Notes under the pieces: generated by a model
Seen by the model: only the letters and a program-made list of their open reading frames with translations
Told to the model about the DNA's origin: nothing
The model's database searches: none
Shown here: positions 13,929 to 26,757 of the stretch, one piece after another
Numbering within the stretch: position 1 is the first letter of the stretch
How the letters are laid out: every line of letters starts with the position of its first letter
Program-made: the position numbers and the translations under genes
Assembly (NCBI GenBank): GCA_963422525.1
Contig: OY730226.1
Span: forward strand, 1,368,524 to 1,432,523
DNA from: Dehalococcoidia bacterium
GTDB lineage: Bacteria; Chloroflexota; Dehalococcoidia; Lucifugimonadales; JADFKI01
Direction of reading: 5' to 3'
Length of the DNA: 64,000 nt

Positions 13929-16196
13929 TTAGCGGCGATAGCCACCCCGACCGCCGCGGTCGTCTCTGCCGCCGCGCTCTCTATCGCTGCCGCCGCGGAA
14001 ACCGCCCCTGTCCCTGCCGCCACGATCGTTGCGCCCTCGACCGCCGTCGCGTCGATAGCCGCCTGTGCGCGCGGGACGGCCACCGCCGATAGGTTCCCTG
14101 CCTGCCGGGTCAATTTCTTCGTCGGTGAGGAGCGCGCGCCTCGATAGGTTAACGCGTCCGAGGTCGTCAATCTGTATGACGGCAACGGTCAGCTCTTGAC
14201 CGATTTCGACGGTTTCGCCGACGGACGGAACGCGCTCGTCGGACAGTTCGCTGATATGGACGAGGCCATCCTTGCCTGGCAGGATGGCGACGAATGCGCC
14301 GAAGTCCATGATGCGGCTAACTTTGCCGGTGAAGATGTCGCCGACCTTGACTTCGCGAGTAAGGTCGTCCACCATCTGCACCGCCTTTTGCGCTGCGGCG
14401 CCGTCGGCTGAGCCGATGATGACCGTGCCGTCCTCTTGTATGTCGATGGTTGCTCCCGTCTCTTCGGTGATGCCCCGTATGGTCTTGCCGCCTGGCCCAA
14501 TCACTGTGCCTATCTTGTCCACGGGGACGTTGATTTGCAGCATTCGGGGCGCGAACGGGCTGAGTTCTTTGCGTGCGTCGCTGATTGTATCCCTCATTTG
14601 GTCGAGGATGAATAGGCGCGCTTCCTTCGCCTGCTTCAAGGCGTCGCGCACCACATCGAAGCTGATGCTGTTCACCTTGATGTCGAGCTGAATTGCGGTG
14701 ATGCCTTCGCGCGTGCCGGCGACCTTGAAGTCCATGTCGCCAATGTGGTCTTCCATCCCTTGAATGTCGGTGATGGTGGCGTACTCGCCGTCCTCGCCGT
14801 CAATGAGACCGATGGATATTCCGGCGACAGGCGATTTTATTGGCACGCCTGCATCCATGAGCGCCAGTGTGCCTGCGCATACGCTCGCCATCGAGGTGCT
14901 GCCGTTGGACCCGAGCGCTTCGCAAACGATTCGCAGTGTATAAGGGAACTCTTCTTGGCTGGGCAGCACAGGCGCAAGCGCGCGTTCGGCGAGCGCTCCG
15001 TGCCCGACTTCGCGCCGTCCCGGAGAACCGATGCGGCGAACTTCGCCGACCGAATATGGCGGGAAGTTGTAGTGCAGCATGAAGCGCTTGGTTTCTTCGG
15101 GCGTGAGCGTGTCTAGGCGCTGGGCGTCGCCGACTGAGCCGAGCGTCGCCACGCCAAGAATTTGGGTCTCCCCGCGATTGAATAGTCCGCTGCCGTGTGC
15201 GCGGGGCAGCAGTCCGACTGTGCTGGATATGGGGCGAATCTCGTGTCTGTCTCGTCCATCCGGGCGCTTGCCGCCCTCCAGCACATTGCGCTTGAAGGCG
15301 TGCTCAAGCTGTATTTCGAATGCGTCGCGCAGATGGTTGGCTTCGTAGTTCTCGCCAAGTTCTGCCGCGACATTCGCGCGCATCTCGTCCAATCGCTCGT
15401 AGAGGTCAACCTTGCCGGTTGATGATGCGAATGCATCCGTCAGCCTGCTGCCGAGAATTGCTGCGAGCTTGTCATCGAGTTCCGCAGGATAGGCGAAGGA
15501 GTCGTATGCCTCCGATTTGGGCTTGCCGATGGCGTCGACCATCCGGTCTTGGAAGTCTATGAATCCTAGATTGACTTCATGGGCGCGCTTGATGGCGTCG
15601 AAGACTACCTCTTCGGGAAGCTCGTTCGCGCCCGCCTCCATCATTGTTACGCCCTCGCGCGAGCTTGACACCACGAGGTCCAGTTCGCTCTCTTCCAGCT
15701 GGGCGTATGACGGATTTACGATCAGCTCGCCGTCGATGTAGCCGATGCGCGTGGCGGCGATAGGTCCTGCGAATGGAATGTCGGATATGGACAGCGCCGC
15801 CGATGCCGCCGTCATTACGAGCGTCTCGAAGGGCGTCTCCATGTCTATGGACAGCGGTGTGGCGACAATCTGCACTTCGTTGCGGAAGTCGTTGGGGAAT
15901 AGAGGGCGGAGCTGCCTGTCTGTCAGCCGCGCCATCAGGATGCCGTGTGTGCTCGGACGGCCTTCGCGGCGGAAGAAGCTGCCCGGTATCTTGCCTCTGG
16001 AGTAGAGGCGCTCTTCCACGTCGATGGTGAGGGGGAAGAAATCGATGCCTGCGCGCGGTTTGGACATCGTGGCGGTAACGAGCAGTGCGCAATCGCCCTG
16101 CTTGACCAGCACTGATCCGTTGGCTTGCAGCGCTAATTGGCCGCTCTCCATGATGAGAGCGCCTGCTTCATAGGTGTGTTCAAACGAGTTCAGCAT
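13929..16196 (-). CDS. pnp: polyribonucleotide nucleotidyltransferase (PNPase) with Arg/Gly-rich C-terminal tail
   Basis: Two RNase PH-like halves, a KH region (INVPVDKIGTVIGPGGKTIRGI), an S1 region (GKVSRIMDFGAFV), then a ~60-aa RGG-type tail. Lies immediately downstream of rpsO. Confidence 0.97.
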   Translation of the reverse strand: MLNSFEHTYEAGALIMESGQLALQANGSVLVKQGDCALLVTATMSKPRAGIDFFPLTIDVEERLYSRGKIPGSFFRREGRPSTHGILMARLTDRQLRPLFPNDFRNEVQIVATPLSIDMETPFETLVMTAASAALSISDIPFAGPIAATRIGYIDGELIVNPSYAQLEESELDLVVSSSREGVTMMEAGANELPEEVVFDAIKRAHEVNLGFIDFQDRMVDAIGKPKSEAYDSFAYPAELDDKLAAILGSRLTDAFASSTGKVDLYERLDEMRANVAAELGENYEANHLRDAFEIQLEHAFKRNVLEGGKRPDGRDRHEIRPISSTVGLLPRAHGSGLFNRGETQILGVATLGSVGDAQRLDTLTPEETKRFMLHYNFPPYSVGEVRRIGSPGRREVGHGALAERALAPVLPSQEEFPYTLRIVCEALGSNGSTSMASVCAGTLALMDAGVPIKSPVAGISIGLIDGEDGEYATITDIQGMEDHIGDMDFKVAGTREGITAIQLDIKVNSISFDVVRDALKQAKEARLFILDQMRDTISDARKELSPFAPRMLQINVPVDKIGTVIGPGGKTIRGITEETGATIDIQEDGTVIIGSADGAAAQKAVQMVDDLTREVKVGDIFTGKVSRIMDFGAFVAILPGKDGLVHISELSDERVPSVGETVEIGQELTVAVIQIDDLGRVNLSRRALLTDEEIDPAGREPIGGGRPARTGGYRRDGGRGRNDRGGRDRGGFRGGSDRERGGRDDRGGRGGYRR

Positions 16197-17770: not shown

Positions 17771-19183
17771 TTACATCGCCGGTCGCCGCGTATGCCATTC
17801 CGTCGCTTGTTCATAGGCGTAGGCGACTTGGAGCGCGACCGCATCCTCGAACGCGCGCGCCGCGATCTGCATTCCGATTGGCAAGCCTTCCGAAGTGAAG
17901 CCGCACGGCACGGATACCGTAGGGATGCCGCATATGTTGTGCGGACGCGTCAGGCGCGGCATAATCGCCAGTTTCGCCTCGCTGACGCCGCTGACCTCCA
18001 CCATGCTGTCGCCAATCTTCGGAGCGCCAATCGCGGTGGTGGGCGCAAGCAGGATGTCGTAGGTTCGCATCGCCCTTGCTATTTCGCGATTGAACGAGGC
18101 GCGCGCGCGCTGCGCCGCGATGTAGGTGACCGCAGGCGTCATTGCGCCTTCTTCCAGCCGCCTGCGTACATCGGCGTCGAGATCGTCGGCGTGTTCGCGC
18201 AGGTTGTCCAGGTGTATCTCTGCCGCTTCTGTGAGCAGGATTGTGCCGGATATGCTTACAGAGTCGTTGAGCGCAGGAATGGAGCACTCTTCCACATGCG
18301 CGCCCAATCCTTCCAGTATCAGCGCCGCCTGCTGAACCGCGGCGCTTACTTCGTCGTCTATGACATCGTAGAAGTATTCTTGCGGCAGCCCGACGCGCAT
18401 GCCGGATATGTCCTGTCCGAGCAGGCGCGTGAAATCTTCGTCGGGGCGGTTGGCTGACGACGCATCGCGCTTGTCGCAGCCCGCGATAGCGTTCATTACG
18501 ATAGCCGCGTCCCTGACGGTGCGTGTCATAGGGCCAACCGTGTCGAGGCTGTTCGCCAATGGGAACACGCCGTGTCTGCTCACTCTGCCGAATGTTGGTT
18601 TCAGCCCTACGATGCCGCAGGCTGATGCGGGAATGCGAACGGAGCCGCCGGTATCGCTGCCGAGCGCTGCCATGCACTGCCCGGCGGCGACCGCCGAGCC
18701 GGAGCCGCCGCTCGAACCGCCGGTGATGCGCGTAATGTCCCAGGGGTTGTGCGCTGGGCCGTAGTGCGGGTTCTCGCTGGTCGCGCCGAGCGCAAACTCA
18801 TGCATTTGCAGCTTGCCTATCAGCGTGGCGCCGGCATTCCGGAAGCGTTCGGTAACGGCGGCGTCATAGTCGGGCACGAAGTCCTGCATAATCTTTGAGC
18901 CGACCGTGGTGCGAATGCCCTTCGTGTAGTATAGGTCTTTCAGTCCGATGGGTATGCCGTGCAGCGCCCCACGATATTCGCCCCGCTGAATAGCGCCTTC
19001 AGCCTCGGCTGCCGCCTCGACTGCTTCATCTGCCAGCAGTGTGATGAATGAGTTCAGCCTATCGTCGGTCTGCGCGATGCGATTGAGGTGCGCGGTGACG
19101 AGTTCGACGGGGGAGAGGCACTTAGATTCGATTAGGCGGGCGGCGTCAGCGATGGTGAGGTAGTGCGGGTCGTTGGTTTGCAT
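17771..19183 (-). CDS. amidase-signature family amidase
   Basis: AS signature GGSSGGSGSAVA and conserved KD(L/N) lysine block GLKDLY. 470 aa. Confidence 0.9.
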   Translation of the reverse strand: MQTNDPHYLTIADAARLIESKCLSPVELVTAHLNRIAQTDDRLNSFITLLADEAVEAAAEAEGAIQRGEYRGALHGIPIGLKDLYYTKGIRTTVGSKIMQDFVPDYDAAVTERFRNAGATLIGKLQMHEFALGATSENPHYGPAHNPWDITRITGGSSGGSGSAVAAGQCMAALGSDTGGSVRIPASACGIVGLKPTFGRVSRHGVFPLANSLDTVGPMTRTVRDAAIVMNAIAGCDKRDASSANRPDEDFTRLLGQDISGMRVGLPQEYFYDVIDDEVSAAVQQAALILEGLGAHVEECSIPALNDSVSISGTILLTEAAEIHLDNLREHADDLDADVRRRLEEGAMTPAVTYIAAQRARASFNREIARAMRTYDILLAPTTAIGAPKIGDSMVEVSGVSEAKLAIMPRLTRPHNICGIPTVSVPCGFTSEGLPIGMQIAARAFEDAVALQVAYAYEQATEWHTRRPAM

Positions 19184-19233
19184 GTGTGTCTCCGATGATT
19201 ATTTTCGCAACATTTTACTTTTGGTATGTGGAT

Positions 19234-20088
19234 CTAATTCACGGTGCGCCGATAATGCCCTCTCTTGATGAACTCGACAAGCCCTAATTCGCGCAGTTTT
19301 TGGAGTTGTTCGCTTAATTTCTGGCGAACATATCGGTTGTTTGGGTATTCCGCGGTCGCCATTGGGCTGCATACATCATACAACTCTTGAATGTCGAACT
19401 CGCTTTCCCTCATTTCCAGAACTCCACGCAATGTAAGCCTGAGCCAACCTTTGAAGCCTGACAATAAACCACTCTCACTAGATATTGAGAATGTTACATC
19501 GTTCATTGAGGTGTCTTCATCCTTATTTATAGCGTTGTCGCCTCTTTGTGGAGGCTTGGGCGTAGATACTCTGATAGCATCTAATGGAACTCGCAAGGCT
19601 TCCAACTCGTTCCTTCCGACTTTGCAGGGTGGCTTTCTCGCACCTAACCCTCGCAATAAGGAATGAGCGAGCCTTTGTATTAACTGCTTGTCCCTGATGC
19701 CTATGCCACATTCCAGATTGCGATACATGCCGCCGTAAGTGGCGTTTGCCGATGTAACTAGCGCGGAATCGTCATCAAAGACATATATTTTGGCGTGTAA
19801 GTTAGATAGGCTGCGGATGTTCACGCCGTCTTTTGCCAGAGCGCATAGGCTGTTGAGATCTGATGAGCCCATGGCGAAGTCTCGTAAATCTGTCTTCGTA
19901 ATGAGTGTGCGCGATGCTTCATTTGAGACGTCTTTGCTCAAATTCAAAATCGCATTGTTGACATATGGGCATCCAATCAGCAGGCGGGAATGGCAAGTCT
20001 TTGCGCGTCCGACAAGCCAATTGAAGGTTGGCGTAGTAACAATTTCTAATGCATTGTTGTTCATGTCCATCAAGCAATTCACAGACAA
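19234..20088 (-). CDS. single-HKD phospholipase-D-family nuclease with C-terminal winged-helix-like domain
   Basis: One HxK-x4-D-x6-(T)SxN motif: HAKIYVFDDDSALVTSAN (nt about 19741-19806). C-terminal EYPNNRYVRQKLSEQLQKLRELGLVEFIKRGHYR. The gene is clearly AT-richer than both neighbours. The start is uncertain: TTG at 20088, or ATG at 20070 or 20064. Confidence 0.75.
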   Translation of the reverse strand: MSVNCLMDMNNNALEIVTTPTFNWLVGRAKTCHSRLLIGCPYVNNAILNLSKDVSNEASRTLITKTDLRDFAMGSSDLNSLCALAKDGVNIRSLSNLHAKIYVFDDDSALVTSANATYGGMYRNLECGIGIRDKQLIQRLAHSLLRGLGARKPPCKVGRNELEALRVPLDAIRVSTPKPPQRGDNAINKDEDTSMNDVTFSISSESGLLSGFKGWLRLTLRGVLEMRESEFDIQELYDVCSPMATAEYPNNRYVRQKLSEQLQKLRELGLVEFIKRGHYRRTVN

Positions 20089-21492
20089 TTAATCCCCCAT
20101 GCCGGCTTGTTGACGCGCTTGCTGGCGGCTGGCGGCTATGACCTGCTCCACTTGGTGAAGCAGCGTGCCTATGTTGCGGACCTGTTGATTCAGCATCGCA
20201 GGTCCTACGGCGAAGCTTATTACGGCAAGTCCGCCTATCATGACGGCGTTTGCCGCGCCGAGGTAGTAGGCTATCGAGCCGGCCTGCATTCCGCCGAGCG
20301 GCATGATGCTCCAGGTCATGCCGTAGAAGCCCATTACTCGCCCGCGCATCCTGTCCGGCACCATCATTTGCAGGGAACTCATTATGGAGATCATGTAGAT
20401 TGAGTTGAAGATGCCGATGAAGACCATTATTGCCATTACTAGGTAGTAGGATGGGTATATCTGCGTAGTCAGCCCGAAGAGAAAGAGCGCCGTTCCGAAT
20501 GCGACCGCTCCGCCGATAAGCATAAGCCCTTTTTGCCGGAAGTTGCCTATCGAACCTAGCAGCATGGTTGTGATTAGCGCGCCTACTCCGCTGACGCCCA
20601 TGAGCATGCCTTGTCCGTCCGCGCCGACCTTCAGGATGTCCACTGCGAAGATTGGCATCATGAATATGTAAGCCATGCCGAAGAAGCTGTTGAAGAAGGT
20701 CATTCCGATGAGGAAGGAGAACACGGAGTTGCCTTTGATGAACTTTATGCCGTCGAGCATGTCGCGCGCGGCGTTGCCGCTGCCGCCGCGCTGAATCTTC
20801 GGCAGCCTTATGGCGGCAATGACGACTGCCATCGTAACGAAGCCGGCGCATGAGATGAAGAAGGAGGTGGATGTGCCGAGCTGCGCTATGATGAAGCCGG
20901 CAAATGCAGGGGCTACTATGCGGGTGCCTTGCCAGATGGCGGCGTTAAGCGACACGGCGCTCATCATAGCTGAACGCTCGATGAGGTGGGGATACAGCGC
21001 TTGGCGCGCCGGCTGGTCGAAGGCGTTCACTGCGCCGGCGAGGAAGGCTATTAGCAAGATGTAGTAGATGTGCAGCACGTCGAACAGCGTCATCAGCGCC
21101 AGGATGAAGATGAGCGACGCCGTTGTGAGCTGGCAGGCGATGATGAGGCGGCGCTTGTCGAACATGTCGGCGAACACCCCGCCGAAAAGGTTCAGCGCAA
21201 TCGCGGGCAGCGCGTTTACCGCGCCGACATAGCCCAGAAAGAGCGGCGACTTGGTGATGTCGAAAGTTACCCAGAGCAAGCCGAAGGTGAGCATCTGGAA
21301 GCCGCTGACCGATGCCAGTGTGCCGAACCAGTAGGCGCGGTACGCCGGATAGCGCAGCGCCGGTGGCGCGGTGAAAATGCGGCGTGGCGCATCACTGTTG
21401 AGCGACTGCTGTGTCAAATCTGCCTCTGCCCCGCCTGCCTCAGTCTTTGAGCGGTATCCTGCCCCAAGTAACTGAGTCAGGGCGTTGGGCAA
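20089..21492 (-). CDS. MFS transporter
   Basis: 12-14 predicted hydrophobic segments and typical MFS loop composition. An alternative TTG start at 21417 (after GAGG) would remove the overlap with the upstream small ORF. Confidence 0.85.
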   Translation of the reverse strand: MPNALTQLLGAGYRSKTEAGGAEADLTQQSLNSDAPRRIFTAPPALRYPAYRAYWFGTLASVSGFQMLTFGLLWVTFDITKSPLFLGYVGAVNALPAIALNLFGGVFADMFDKRRLIIACQLTTASLIFILALMTLFDVLHIYYILLIAFLAGAVNAFDQPARQALYPHLIERSAMMSAVSLNAAIWQGTRIVAPAFAGFIIAQLGTSTSFFISCAGFVTMAVVIAAIRLPKIQRGGSGNAARDMLDGIKFIKGNSVFSFLIGMTFFNSFFGMAYIFMMPIFAVDILKVGADGQGMLMGVSGVGALITTMLLGSIGNFRQKGLMLIGGAVAFGTALFLFGLTTQIYPSYYLVMAIMVFIGIFNSIYMISIMSSLQMMVPDRMRGRVMGFYGMTWSIMPLGGMQAGSIAYYLGAANAVMIGGLAVISFAVGPAMLNQQVRNIGTLLHQVEQVIAASRQQARQQAGMGD

Positions 21493-21661
21493 GTTCTCTG
21501 TCGCGGATTAGCTGCCGAATGTTTAGCAGCGTTTCGTTGACCTCGCCGGTTACATAGACCCAGTCGGGTTCCTCCGGGAACCAGTAAGGGGATGTTATGC
21601 GTACCACCTTGTGTTCGCTAGGGTTCAGGTAGATGCCGAATTTGGATATGTGCGGTAACAT
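21440..21661 (-). CDS. hypothetical 73-aa protein
   Basis: The only sizeable ORF in the glmS-MFS gap, same strand as its neighbours, non-repetitive sequence. I recognised no family. Confidence 0.35.
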   Translation of the reverse strand: MLPHISKFGIYLNPSEHKVVRITSPYWFPEEPDWVYVTGEVNETLLNIRQLIRDRELAQRPDSVTWGRIPLKD

Positions 21662-21778
21662 TTGCCACCTCTGCCGCCTCTGATTGTTAGCGCTAAATTA
21701 ACACACGCTTGCGCTATCTTCAACGGAGCGCTTACCGCCAAGTCGATAACCAGATAGATTGTCCATCCTGTCAGCCGA

Positions 21779-23623
21779 CTATTCGACGGTGACCGATTTG
21801 GCGAGATTGCGGGGCTGGTCAACATCGCATCCTCGCCGCACAGCGATGTGATATGCGAGAAGTTGCATGGGTATGGCGGCGAGGATGGGCGTAATGTTGG
21901 CGGATGCTTTGGGGATGTAGATTGCGTGGTCGACGGTGTCGCGGATATGCTCATCGCCCTCTGTGGCGACGGCGATGACCGCGCTGCCCCGCGCCTTGAC
22001 TTCGTGCACATTGCTGAGCATTTTGTCGTACAAGTTATCCTGTGGGATGAGCGCCACGACGGGCATCTTTTCGTCGATGAGGGATATGGGTCCGTGTTTC
22101 ATTTCGCCCGCAGGGTAGCCCTCTGCGTGTATGTAGCTTATCTCTTTGAGTTTTAGCGCGCCTTCCATTGCCAGCGGGTAGTTTTTGCCCCGTCCTAGAA
22201 AAAGGAAGTTATCGCTCTGCGCGTACTGGCGCGCCAGCTCCTTATACTGCGACTGGTCCGATGTGAGTTGCCCAATCATCTCCGGCAGGCGCGTCATCTC
22301 TTGCACGATTTGCAGCAGCGCTTTGTGGTTTATCGTGCCGCGCTTGACGCCGAGATAGAGCGCAAGCGCGTATAGCGTTGCGAGGGAGCAGGTGAACGTC
22401 TTTGTGCCGGCGACGCTAATTTCCAGGCCGGCGCGAATGGGCAGCACGCCGTCGGCGACGCGCGTAGATTGAGCGCCGTCGTAGTTGCATAGCGTCAGCT
22501 GCCGGGCGCCGAGCCGCTTCGCTTCGTCCATGGCGCCGAGCGTGTCGGCAGTCTCACCCGACTGTGATATGGAGATAACGAGTGTGTGTTCGTCCAGGAT
22601 CGCGTCGCGGTAGCGAAATTCTGAGGAGTTTTCCACTTCGCAGGCTAAGCGCGCCAGCGTCTCTATCCACATGCGACCGACCATTCCGGCATGCATGCTG
22701 GTGCCCATTCCGATGATGACTGCCTTGCTGAATTGCCGCACCTCATCGTCGGAGAAGGCGAAATCGGGCAGGGTAATGCCGGGAGGGTCGAATTGCACTC
22801 GGCCGCGCAGTGTATCCAGAACGGCGTCGGACTGCTCATGGATTTCTTTGAGCATGAAGTGCTTGTACTCGCCTTTGGAGGCTGTCAGGGCGTCGTATGG
22901 CAGGTGCGATGTGGTCTTGGCAACGGGGGCGCCATCTATGCGCGTGTATTCGGCGCGCTCACGCGTGACGGTAGCCATCTCATTGACGGCAAGATACGCT
23001 ACATTGCGCGCATGCGGCAGGAGCGCCGAGATGTCGCTGGCAAGCAGCATTTCTTGCTTGCCGTAGCCGATGACGATACCGCCGGCGTTCCCTAGCTTGA
23101 AAGACACTATCTTGTCGGGCTCTTTGCGGGAGAGCGCCACTACCGCATTCGCTCCGCTAATGCGTTGCGCGGCGGCGCGCGCTGCGTCTTCAAGTGAGCG
23201 GCCGTCTTGCATGTACGACTCGATGAGGTGCGGAATGCACTCGGCGTCCGTCTGCGAGTTGAACACATGCCCGTTGTCGGTGAGTTCCCGCTTCAGCTCT
23301 TGGTAGTTCTCGATGATGCCGTTGTGCACGACCATCACATCGCCGGCGCAGTCGGTGTGAGGGTGAGCGTTGAAGTCGGTCGGCCCGCCGTGTGTAGCCC
23401 AGCGCGTATGCCCGACGCCGCTGTTGCCCTCAGGTAGCCTGTTGCCTATAACGCTCTTCAGCCTTGAGAGCTTGCCTGCAGACTTGTAGAGTTGCGACGT
23501 GCTTTCGCCGTCCAGCACCACGATGCCTGCGCTGTCGTAGCCTCGATATTCGAGGCTGGTCAGCCCTTCCAAGATTATCGGCGCAGCGGTTCTGTCGCCT
23601 ATGTAGCCAATGATTCCGCACAC
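21779..23623 (-). CDS. glmS: glutamine--fructose-6-phosphate aminotransferase (isomerising)
   Basis: Catalytic N-terminal Cys context (V)CGIIGYIG, so the start is most likely the GTG at 23623 rather than the track ATG at 23641. Two SIS domains and a C-terminal KSVTVE. Confidence 0.95.
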   Translation of the reverse strand: MCGIIGYIGDRTAAPIILEGLTSLEYRGYDSAGIVVLDGESTSQLYKSAGKLSRLKSVIGNRLPEGNSGVGHTRWATHGGPTDFNAHPHTDCAGDVMVVHNGIIENYQELKRELTDNGHVFNSQTDAECIPHLIESYMQDGRSLEDAARAAAQRISGANAVVALSRKEPDKIVSFKLGNAGGIVIGYGKQEMLLASDISALLPHARNVAYLAVNEMATVTRERAEYTRIDGAPVAKTTSHLPYDALTASKGEYKHFMLKEIHEQSDAVLDTLRGRVQFDPPGITLPDFAFSDDEVRQFSKAVIIGMGTSMHAGMVGRMWIETLARLACEVENSSEFRYRDAILDEHTLVISISQSGETADTLGAMDEAKRLGARQLTLCNYDGAQSTRVADGVLPIRAGLEISVAGTKTFTCSLATLYALALYLGVKRGTINHKALLQIVQEMTRLPEMIGQLTSDQSQYKELARQYAQSDNFLFLGRGKNYPLAMEGALKLKEISYIHAEGYPAGEMKHGPISLIDEKMPVVALIPQDNLYDKMLSNVHEVKARGSAVIAVATEGDEHIRDTVDHAIYIPKASANITPILAAIPMQLLAYHIAVRRGCDVDQPRNLAKSVTVE

Positions 23624-24305: not shown

Positions 24306-24994
24306 TGGCGCGCCATCGCGAGTATCTTGAGCGTGACTTCATTAATTGTCATTTGGTCGGTGCAAATCATTACGGCGTCTTCGGCGCGGCGCAGCGGTGA
24401 ATCGTCGCGCTTGCTGTCTATGCGGTCTCTGCGGAGCAAGCCGGCGAGTGTCTCCGTATAGTTAGGCTTCCCTTGCCCTTGCTTCATATCAGCGCTGCGC
24501 CGTGCGGCGCGCACCTCAGCCGATGCGGTGAGGAAGACCTTGACGCCGGCATTCGGCAGCACCACCGTGCCGATGTCGCGTCCTGACATGACGATTGCTC
24601 CTTGGCATGCGATGGCGCGCTGCTGCGCCACAAGCGCCCTTCGCACGCCGCTCACTTCAGAGATCTGAGAGACGATTTGATCCACTTCCGGCAGCCTGAG
24701 ATTGTCGGTGATGTCCTCGCCTTCGAGCAGCAGCCTGTCGCCGTTCGCATCGGCCTCGAGCCGAATATCCGCGGACTCCGCCAATTCGGTCAGCGCGTCT
24801 GCGTCCGTCGGGTTGACCTGACGCCGGATAGTGGCCCAAGCAACTGCGCGGTACATCGTGCCCGTATCTAAGAAGCGAACGCCTAGCCGATGCGCCACCT
24901 CGCTGCCTACGACGCTCTTGCCGGACGCGGCGGGTCCGTCAATCGCCATGCTGAAGGGAAGGCTGCGTTCTGCGTTTAATTGGATTCCTTCCAT
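24299..24994 (-). CDS. cmk: cytidylate kinase
   Basis: P-loop IDGPAASGKS, LDTGTMYR block. 231 aa. Confidence 0.93.
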   Translation of the reverse strand: MEGIQLNAERSLPFSMAIDGPAASGKSVVGSEVAHRLGVRFLDTGTMYRAVAWATIRRQVNPTDADALTELAESADIRLEADANGDRLLLEGEDITDNLRLPEVDQIVSQISEVSGVRRALVAQQRAIACQGAIVMSGRDIGTVVLPNAGVKVFLTASAEVRAARRSADMKQGQGKPNYTETLAGLLRRDRIDSKRDDSPLRRAEDAVMICTDQMTINEVTLKILAMARQC

Positions 24995-25119
24995 GCCAAA
25001 TTCTCACCATGCCAAATTCTCGGTTAAGCCCCTATGTAAATTATAAGTCTATAGACAGCGATTATAGATTGAATTGCAGGCGTCGTGCAATCATCGAGGA
25101 GCGAAAATTCATCCCTGGC

Positions 25120-25250
25120 AGCGTTTCCGTTCGGGGACGATTTTTATTCGTCATTCCCGCGAGGCAGGTCCCTGCGAAGGTAGGGGCATTGCGCAAAGAT
25201 CTGCGTTTGGGGACGCATAGAAGGCATGTCCCTGCGAAGGTAGGGAGCAA
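25120..25250. repeat. two tandem copies of a short structured motif (gcgttt..ggggacg..(c/t)(a/t)GTCCCTGCGAAGGTAGGG)
   Basis: GTCCCTGCGAAGGTAGGG occurs twice about 60 nt apart, each preceded by gcgttt(ccgtt c)ggggacg. The first copy also carries tcattcccgcgaggcagg, which belongs to a dispersed motif family also seen at about 47352. Confidence 0.5.
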
Positions 25251-25347
25251 GAATCCGCACGGCATAACGACAGAGCCGCTTAGCTCAAAAGAAAACGCTT
25301 TCTCATTCTCTTCATCCTGACCATTCATATTTAGCATACAAAATTCA

Positions 25348-25377
25348 TTGACAGCAGAAATCGCGCTTTGATAGCAT
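25348..25377 (+). promoter_or_regulatory. putative sigma-70-type promoter of the 5S rRNA gene
   Basis: Perfect -35 TTGACA (25348-25353), an 18-nt spacer, a -10-like TAGCAT (25372-25377) and an A/T-rich stretch upstream. About 15 nt before the 5S 5' end. Confidence 0.4.
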
Positions 25378-25392
25378 TGTCATTGAATTAAG

Positions 25393-25514
25393 TCCTTTGG
25401 TGGTTCTGGCTAGATGGCCCCACCCGTTCCCATCCCGAACACGGAAGTGAAACATCTCAGCGCCGACGATACTGCACCCGCAAGGTTGTGGGAAAATAGG
25501 TCACTGCCAAGGGG
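25393..25514 (+). rRNA. rrf: 5S ribosomal RNA, not linked to 23S/16S in this window
   Basis: Universal 5S blocks CCCACCCGTTCCCATCCCGAACACGGAAGTGAAAC and AGCGCCGA.GATACT, and a terminal helix pairing CCTTTGGTGG with CACTGCCAAGGG. Ends are accurate to about 3 nt. Followed by CTTTTTC. Confidence 0.9.
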
Positions 25515-25662
25515 CTTTTTCTTTGCGTATGACGGTTATTTGGGAATGCGGTCCGCCGTCCTCTAACCTTCTTTGCAGCAATATGTCGCAATTCTCGAGC
25601 GATTGACCTTACACGACACGCGATTTTAATTAAGGCATTATAGAAAGAGAGAGAAAAATTAA

Positions 25663-26757
25663 ATGAGCCTTCGCGGAAGTTTGTTAATTATGTTGATAGT
25701 CGTAGGTATTCTATCGCTCGTCGCCTGCCAGCAGCAGGCGTCAGAAGATGCCGCGTCGGAAGAAGAGGCTGTGTCGGACAGCCAGTCCACCAGCCGATTA
25801 GAGATGGTAAAGGAACGCGGCAATCTGATTTGCGCGAGCAACAACAGCCTCGCCGGTTTCGGCACTCTTGATGCCAACCAAAACACCGTCGGCTTCGACA
25901 TAGATCTGTGCCGCGCGGTGGCAGCCGCGGTTTTGGGCAACGCCGATGCCGTAGAGTTCAGCCCCACCGTCGCCGCAGAGCGCGGTCCCAAGATGCAGTC
26001 GGGCGAAGTTGACATTATGTCGCGCAATACCACATGGACAAGCAGCAGAAACGCGCAATGGGGCAACTTCGCGCCTACCATGTTCTACGATGGGCAGGGC
26101 TTCATGGTTCCAAAGTCGCTCGGCGTTTCCAGCATGATGGAGCTTCAGGGCGCGAAGATATGCGTTCAGCAAGGCACGACTACCGAGCTGAATGTTCAGG
26201 ACTTCGATAACCAGAACGGCATGAACTTCGAGTATGTGGTAGTGCCTGACAATATATCGGCGAACGCAGCCTACCTCGCAGGTCAGTGCGATTCGCTCAC
26301 CACTGACCGCTCAGGACTGGTGAGCACCCGCGTGGGCTTCGATAACCCCGACGATCATATTATCCTCGCCGGCACTATCTCCGAAGAGCCGCTTGGTCCG
26401 GTCGTGCCGCACGGCGATGAACAGTGGTATGACATCGTGTCGGCGGTTATGGCGATTCTCATCTACGCAGAAGCGTATGGCGTAACTTCTTCTACTGTTC
26501 CGACAGCCGCGACCGGCGAAACCGCCGTTGACCGCCTGTTCGGTTTGGGAGGCGTATTCGGTCAGGAAACTATGGGGCTGAGCGAGACTGTGGCGCAGGA
26601 TGTGATTCGCGCCGTCGGCAACTACGGCGAAATCTATGACCGCCACCTGACGCCCCTAGGACTGCAGCGAGAAGGTAGCCGCAACGCTCTTTGGAGCGCC
26701 GCGCCCTGCACCGACTGCCCTAAGGGAGGCCAGATTTACGCAGCGCCCTTGCGGTAA
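25663..26757 (+). CDS. amino-acid ABC transporter substrate-binding protein (general L-amino-acid AapJ-like)
   Basis: Signal peptide with lipobox-like LSLVAC, family-3 SBP blocks (GFDIDLCRAVAAAV, MSRNTTWT). Followed by two AapQ/M-type permeases and an ATPase. Confidence 0.85.
   Translation: MSLRGSLLIMLIVVGILSLVACQQQASEDAASEEEAVSDSQSTSRLEMVKERGNLICASNNSLAGFGTLDANQNTVGFDIDLCRAVAAAVLGNADAVEFSPTVAAERGPKMQSGEVDIMSRNTTWTSSRNAQWGNFAPTMFYDGQGFMVPKSLGVSSMMELQGAKICVQQGTTTELNVQDFDNQNGMNFEYVVVPDNISANAAYLAGQCDSLTTDRSGLVSTRVGFDNPDDHIILAGTISEEPLGPVVPHGDEQWYDIVSAVMAILIYAEAYGVTSSTVPTAATGETAVDRLFGLGGVFGQETMGLSETVAQDVIRAVGNYGEIYDRHLTPLGLQREGSRNALWSAAPCTDCPKGGQIYAAPLR

Follow-up and report, generated by a model that had tools for sequence, protein, structure and literature searches.

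A search for fusions of a DpnI-type winged helix with a nuclease domain yielded the 'PLD-wH' class, in which the winged helix (wH) is joined to a nuclease of the phospholipase D (PLD) family (Helbrecht et al., Front Microbiol 2024, PMC11037411). Its 27 members were proposed to be putative Type IV restriction enzymes that depend on N6-methyladenine (m6A or 6mA) (PMC11037411). The two that were tested came from an Anaerolineaceae bacterium (Aba4572I) and a Chloroflexi bacterium (CbaI); CbaI was toxic in Dam+ Escherichia coli and non-toxic in Dam− cells (PMC11037411). A full-text literature search found no later work on this class. Here, we describe a gene of the same architecture in a stretch of 64,000 nt from a Dehalococcoidia bacterium, hereafter called the window, in which position 1 is the first letter. 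We propose that its product is a PLD-wH endonuclease that works as a stand-alone, modification-dependent (Type IV-like) restriction enzyme, with a probability of about 0.7. The original prediction for this locus, made from the DNA letters, had already raised a type IV-like stand-alone nuclease, which agrees with the published class (PMC11037411). The gene and its parts are as follows:

19234..20088, minus strand: PLD-wH gene, an open reading frame (ORF) of 284 aa if counted from the TTG at 20088, with the stop codon TAG at 19234-19236

19663..20001, minus strand: N-terminal, Nuc-like PLD nuclease domain (PLDc_2, aa 30-142, E=6.6e-12; structured core approximately aa 10-145)

19744..19797, minus strand: single HKD motif HAKIYVFDDDSALVTSAN (H98, K100, D105, S113, N115), aa 98-115; the PLDc active-site motif matches aa 97-115

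19453..19662, minus strand: inter-domain region, aa 143-212, with the highest ratio of nonsynonymous to synonymous substitution rates (dN/dS) of the protein, 0.26

19249..19452, minus strand: DpnI-type winged helix, aa 213-280, a putative reader of modified DNA (DpnI_C, PF17726)

19300..19323, minus strand: QKLSEQLQ, aa 256-263, the motif of the recognition helix, which corresponds to DpnI E228-KIRQQL-Q235

The ORF is intact, and it contains both the single HKD motif HAKIYVFDDDSALVTSAN and the C-terminal peptide EYPNNRYVRQKLSEQLQKLRELGLVEFIKRGHYR on which the original prediction was built. The PLDc_2 and DpnI_C matches both lie above the Pfam gathering cut-offs and far beyond chance, the latter with 56 bits against a cut-off of 23 (E=4.2e-15). 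The tail, which had been described as winged-helix-like, is thus specifically the C-terminal, methyl-GATC-binding winged helix of DpnI. This domain of DpnI was also the sole significant sequence match in the PDB (4esj residues 188-256, E=4e-5, 70 residues). Only aa 212-281 can be aligned to DpnI, and membership of the DpnI family (Type IIM) was rejected, since the N-terminal domain is a PLD domain and not a PD-(D/E)XK domain. Among the PADLOC models, the C-terminus of mREase_II (Type II methyl-directed REase) matches the protein with E=1e-10, and the DrmC PLD models match it around the HKD motif.

An AlphaFold2 model of the 276-aa protein as a monomer, built on a 53-sequence alignment, reached a mean predicted local distance difference test score (pLDDT) of 90.8 and a predicted template modelling score of 0.86, with values above 90 in the PLD domain. 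Residues 177-186 of the model (aa 185-194 in ORF numbering; pLDDT 53-54) form a disordered linker. Foldseek searches of the PDB placed the single-HKD nucleases NucT (6ehi) and Nuc (1byr) at the top, with template modelling scores of 0.70-0.73 normalised to the target, followed by Zucchini, SauUSI and BfiI; DpnI (4kyw) was matched via its winged helix. Together with the Pfam match, these results bear out a single-HKD nuclease of the PLD family. The Pss and PLD structures found further down the Foldseek list, and weak NCBIfam matches to ClsB and cardiolipin synthase (E=0.002-0.1), would be in line with a PLD of phospholipid metabolism, for instance a synthase of cardiolipin or phosphatidylserine. 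Nevertheless, the NCBIfam matches amount to 11-17 bits against cut-offs of 281-290, the protein has one HKD motif and not two, it is fused to a DNA-binding winged helix and its top structural matches are nucleases. Membership of these synthases was rejected on the HKD count and the profile scores, and this identity is effectively refuted.

We then asked how widespread the architecture is. A homologue search gave 247 matches, and all 120 of the matches listed are proteins of approximately 270-280 aa that have both domains and bear no annotation other than hypothetical. An exhaustive HMMER scan of 1.84 billion cluster representatives retrieved 57 matches with E≤1e-30; at E≤1e-10, the number rose to 325. 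The full-length family members form >150 clusters at 50% identity, and thus the family is far larger than the 27 published proteins. Of 123 diverse members, 120 retain an intact H/K/D/S/N catalytic signature.

Judged on its sequence, the window gene is a member of the known, barely characterised PLD-wH class by its architecture, its source phylum and its stand-alone state. As far as can be compared from the published descriptions of CbaI and Aba4572I, the paper and its supplements giving no sequences, it shares with them the N-terminal PLD nuclease, the C-terminal DpnI-like winged helix and the Chloroflexota source. Like them, it is a stand-alone gene without a cognate methyltransferase, for which a Type IV, m6A-dependent activity is proposed. 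In contrast, both tested proteins had been picked for the DpnI 6mA/GATC motif (PMC11037411), whereas the window protein has Ser and Glu at the positions of R231 and Q232. Three observations go beyond the literature: the larger size of the family, a history of insertion and loss with persistently atypical composition, and the clade-specific Ser/Glu pair of the reader.

The comparison with better-known enzymes suggests how such a protein might work. DpnI (Type IIM, 4esj/4kyw) has a homologous C-terminal winged helix, but its catalytic PD-(D/E)XK domain itself reads Gm6ATC, and it cuts within the site as a monomer. The catalytic domain of the window protein has no evident sequence reader, and cleavage outside the site, by a dimer, would be expected. 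The best mechanistic analogue is BfiI (Type IIS, 2c1l), which also combines an N-terminal single-HKD PLD domain with a C-terminal DNA-recognition domain and forms a metal-independent dimer with one active site and two DNA-binding domains. It differs in that its B3-like barrel reads unmodified ACTGGG and that it has a companion methyltransferase, whereas the window protein carries a winged helix of the methyl-sensing type and has no methyltransferase. The closest structural matches of the catalytic domain, Nuc of Salmonella pKM101 and NucT of Helicobacter pylori, are likewise single-HKD proteins and obligate homodimers, but these periplasmic or secreted nucleases are non-specific, measure approximately 155 aa and have no DNA-reader domain. 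In these single-HKD nucleases (Nuc, NucT and BfiI), the dimer has one metal-independent active site, and the reaction proceeds through a phosphohistidine intermediate.

We infer dimerisation, the cleavage chemistry, modification dependence and a role in defence. The DpnI-type winged helix would dock in the major groove and, with no need to flip a base, read a modified duplex site. In DpnI, this site is fully methylated 6mApT within GATC, and the family consensus points to the same site. As each chain has one HKD motif, two subunits would be needed for one active site. By analogy with Nuc, NucT and BfiI, the paired PLD domains would form one metal-independent active site and act through a covalent phosphohistidine intermediate. 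A BfiI-like dimer would thereby combine two readers with one catalytic centre and cut near the recognised site, not inside it. With no cognate methyltransferase, the cell's own DNA would be spared, and modified DNA brought in by a phage or plasmid would be attacked.

Consistent with the original prediction that no methyltransferase or partner gene is nearby, none was found in the neighbourhoods of the window gene or of its homologues. The neighbours within 10 kb are housekeeping genes, as are the flanking genes at five homologue loci, and no methyltransferase was found at any of these places. A motif scan of the 64-kb window with [DNS]PP[YFW] identified no ORF for a DPPY/NPPY-type methyltransferase; the only match, an SPPY, lies in a non-genic ORF of 157 aa (21628..22098, minus strand) that overlaps glmS. 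The absence of a methyltransferase from the window and the homologue loci fits the logic of Type IV systems, which spare the unmodified DNA of the cell and cut invaders that are modified. The same neighbourhoods bear on the idea that the gene is an orphan, DrmC-like part of DISARM or of another multi-gene defence system with its partners elsewhere in the genome. DrmC shares the PLD-family nuclease domain, and DrmC models are the best PADLOC and NCBIfam matches for the PLD domain of the window protein. However, the NCBIfam DrmC match reaches 50.4 bits where the cut-off is 133, and it is limited to 51 residues around the HKD motif; DrmC proteins are devoid of a DpnI_C domain. Furthermore, there is no DISARM neighbourhood, with no drmA, drmB or methyltransferase in the window or at any homologue locus. 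DrmC membership was rejected on the NCBIfam score and the neighbourhood, and we regard this origin as very improbable.

The genetic environment also records how the gene arrived. It is part of a gene array on one strand, cmk-plsC-glmS-orf73-MFS-[PLD-wH]-amidase-hydrolase-rpsO-pnp, where MFS denotes a major facilitator superfamily transporter. Its immediate surroundings are:

20089..21492, minus strand: MFS transporter gene, the upstream flank and left border of the insertion site

19184..19233, minus strand: spacer of 50 nt between the PLD-wH stop and the amidase start, AT-rich (GC 0.36), the remaining 3' end of the inserted DNA

17771..19183, minus strand: amidase gene (ATG at 19183), the downstream flank and right border of the insertion site

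The PLD-wH gene has a GC content of 0.469 and a GC content at third codon positions (GC3) of 0.519, compared with 0.58-0.62 and 0.72-0.76 for the neighbouring genes. The drop in base composition at the gene borders that had been predicted is thus real. As had also been stated, the amidase ATG lies exactly 50 nt past the PLD-wH stop, and the interval of 19190-20090 given for the gene in the original prediction takes in this spacer. Counted with its stop codon, the MFS ORF extends to 20089. The claim that this stop codon abuts the PLD-wH gene probably does not hold: homologues have only 5-8 residues ahead of the conserved LEIVTTPT, which makes a start at the ATG at 20070 (278 aa) or at 20064 (276 aa) likelier than the TTG at 20088. 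On this reading of the sequence, 18-24 nt separate the MFS stop from the PLD-wH start, with no direct abutment.

The original prediction also proposed the horizontal acquisition of a single gene. The insertion itself is supported by relatives in which the MFS-amidase junction is empty, namely L002, whose polynucleotide phosphorylase (PNPase) is 89% identical (131-nt spacer), L004 (335 nt) and L005 (408 nt). The gene is present at this junction in L001, a strain of the same species that is 97-100% identical to the window, and in L082 and L083, with 74% and 69% identity. Such presence and absence at one site among relatives is typical of defence genes. A tree of five concatenated flanking proteins has the topology (((window, L001), L082), (L083, L002)), L008, (L004, L005), with 100% bootstrap at every node, and the PLD-wH distances are ranked alike. 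Most parsimoniously, the gene was gained once in the ancestor of the clade and later lost in L002. The L002 spacer is GC-rich (0.60), and tblastn found no remnant of PLD-wH in it. The spacer evidence fits this loss and a spread of the insert by recombination among relatives equally well; the tree favours a single gain and a single loss. Recent horizontal acquisition, as a candidate explanation, was rejected, since the divergence of the same-site orthologues in L082 and L083 parallels the tree of the flanking genes. Thus, the acquisition is ancient and followed by vertical inheritance.

The insert probably held more than one gene. The interval between PLD-wH and the amidase gene measures 50-56 nt in the window and L082, and it is longer and AT-rich in L001 (618 nt, L001:10856-11473) and L083 (477 nt, L083:10847-11323). 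The L001 and L083 spacers have one homologous segment in common, with 68% identity over 192 nt that cover a 73-aa ORF in L083 (MPNKEELSNIERAILEAF...). From this homology, the ancestral insert probably consisted of PLD-wH and a small downstream ORF that later decayed or was deleted, the second gene having probably been lost from the window. At the same junction, the more distant Chloroflexota relative L008 has another insert, of 3.5 kb (L008:1990-5500), which codes for an FHA-domain/OmpR-type regulator (229 aa) and a Ser/Thr kinase (787 aa). As this insert is unrelated, the MFS-amidase junction looks like a site of recurrent gene gain.

Since its acquisition, the gene has evolved faster than its surroundings, with 74% and 69% identity to L082 and L083 where the concatenated flanks have 92% and 85.5%. 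Its dN/dS against the syntenic orthologues is 0.12-0.17 over the whole gene, indicating purifying selection. In three lineages, its GC3 has remained at 0.51-0.54, compared with 0.72-0.79 in the flanks, despite a dS of 0.9-2.0 that is near saturation. Thus, the AT-rich composition has not been ameliorated after long vertical inheritance. One possibility is that the persistently low GC3 reflects selection for weak expression of a toxic nuclease. The original prediction had named as unfavourable outcomes a grouping with phospholipid-metabolising PLDs, a tail without a DNA-binding fold, and conserved synteny with normal composition in relatives. None was found in full: the protein falls outside the lipid PLDs, and the tail has a DNA-binding fold. 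As for the third, the gene is syntenic in some relatives, but its composition is abnormal in all of them and it is absent from others. Overall, the original prediction was essentially correct, both in what it described and in how it interpreted it.

The reader domain departs from DpnI at positions that matter for recognition. The methyl pocket and base contacts of DpnI are formed by E228, K229, R231, Q232 and Q235 of the helix EKIRQQLQ, and the R231A substitution weakens binding by the winged helix (PMC3424567). In the alignment to DpnI, the window protein has Ser259 in place of R231 and Glu260 in place of Q232, and it shares K229, Q233, L234 and Q235 of the recognition helix. The consensus of the PLD-wH family for this helix, xK[IL]RQQLQ, is DpnI-like, with Arg at the R231 position in 115 and Gln at the Q232 position in 102 of the 123 diverse members. 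The Ser/Glu pair is confined to the clade of the window protein: it occurs in 11 of 121 close homologues and in 3 of the 123 diverse representatives, all of this clade. The DpnI motif for which the two tested members had been picked is therefore incomplete here, K229 and Q235 being kept and R231 and Q232 not. As only ~10% of winged-helix fusions carry this motif (PMC11037411), it is a criterion for specificity and not for architecture.

Within the clade, dN/dS is lowest in the winged helix (0.06-0.09), intermediate in the PLD domain (0.10-0.16) and highest in the linker (0.26). This strong constraint on the winged helix argues that Ser/Glu is a maintained state and not decay. Because R231 and Q232 are replaced, the target of the reader of this clade might not be Gm6ATC but another modified site. 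We tentatively consider the clade, i.e. the window protein and its relatives down to ~61% identity, as retargeted PLD-wH proteins whose Ser/Glu reader has a specificity other than Gm6ATC, a proposal that we hold to be possible rather than probable. The candidate targets could then be 6mA in another flanking context or another major-groove modification. If true, the DpnI-type winged helix would be a re-programmable reader of modifications. The two best-conserved residues of the reader have changed in this clade only, which yields a testable prediction of altered specificity.

The same substitutions could mean that the helix has lost methyl sensing altogether, and that the protein is a modification-independent, sequence-directed nuclease or DNA-binding protein with a housekeeping role or one in DNA uptake or degradation. 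The replacement of R231 and Q232 is in keeping with this idea, as are the top structural matches to Nuc and NucT, the latter acting in natural transformation, the long vertical retention of the gene and its location amid housekeeping genes with which it is probably co-transcribed. Nevertheless, NucT and Nuc carry signal peptides and are not known to have a winged helix, and the winged helix of the window protein is a bona fide DpnI_C member. Without a methyltransferase for protection, a nuclease tethered to unmodified DNA of the host type would be toxic to its own cell, and the gene is dispensable, having been cleanly lost in L002 and being absent from most relatives. We thus find a modification-independent function unlikely.

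Several facts weigh against a modification-dependent restriction enzyme. The gene is outside any defence island and sits in a co-directional array of housekeeping genes with no promoter of its own detected; a consensus scan of its strand for a promoter or terminator of PLD-wH found nothing above chance. No full-length family member was found on IMG/VR viral contigs, in GenBank phage records or on PLSDB plasmids, which gave single-domain matches only. The window protein lacks two of the five methyl-pocket and base-contact residues of DpnI. As for the published members, the toxicity of Aba4572I is independent of Dam, and over-expression or purification of PLD-wH proteins was never achieved and DNA cleavage never shown (PMC11037411). 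The toxicity observed in vivo could stem from tight binding.

Some of these facts would suit a toxic effector of abortive infection or addiction, i.e. a largely non-specific PLD nuclease restrained by low expression, in which the winged helix would be a trigger or regulator and not a targeting device. Aba4572I was toxic in Dam− cells, and two further PLD-wH genes were too toxic to be expressed even in Dam− E. coli (PMC11037411). Similarly, the low GC3 kept over a long residence could reflect selection for poor expression. Yet the toxicity of CbaI depends on Dam (PMC11037411), and there is no conserved antitoxin or partner. The small ORFs adjoining PLD-wH in L083, L084 and L086 were considered as a conserved small partner (antitoxin or regulator) and rejected, being mutually unrelated and absent from the window. 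A toxic effector is accordingly quite improbable in our view, and a restriction endonuclease directed at modified DNA remains the preferred reading.

PLD-wH is the one class of winged-helix methyl-reader nucleases that was never purified or assayed, which makes a well-defined, evolutionarily validated member a useful candidate. The locus offers a natural series of presence and absence in close relatives, and evidence of a lone gene among housekeeping genes that has been kept in the long term by selection. New cutters dependent on m6A or on other modifications would be useful as epigenetic tools. The general picture of how such systems work is unchanged by these findings.

We also looked at GATC frequencies. 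The window has 101 GATC sites against 316 expected, an observed/expected ratio (O/E) of 0.32, and ACGT (0.23) and GGCC (0.30) are depleted as well. Among the loci that carry PLD-wH, the GATC O/E is 0.35 in L001, 0.18 in L082 and 0.44 in L083; among those devoid of it, it is 0.70 in L002, 0.53 in L008, 0.93 in L004 and 0.61 in L005, in a small sample with ~20 kb per locus. The median across 75 loci from diverse bacteria is 0.91. The GATC depletion may result from past or present GATC-directed restriction pressure.

The window has further features of note. The C-terminus of PNPase (13929-14150, minus strand) is an Arg/Gly-rich, RGG-like tail of ~50 residues (…GGRPARTGGYRRDGGRGRNDRGGRDRGGFRGGSDRERGGRDDRGGRGGYRR). 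It is poorly conserved, as tblastn alignments to relatives end at approximately residue 705. A second low-GC stretch (0.47-0.50) is found at ~24950-25850, beside cmk; it corresponds to an intergenic region of ~600 nt in L001 between cmk and a divergent gene for an ABC-transporter substrate-binding protein. Lastly, orf73, between the glmS and MFS genes (21440-21661, minus strand), codes for a 73-aa protein with no Pfam match. This small protein is 73-99% identical across all Dehalococcoidia and Chloroflexota relatives examined, above several of the neighbouring enzymes.

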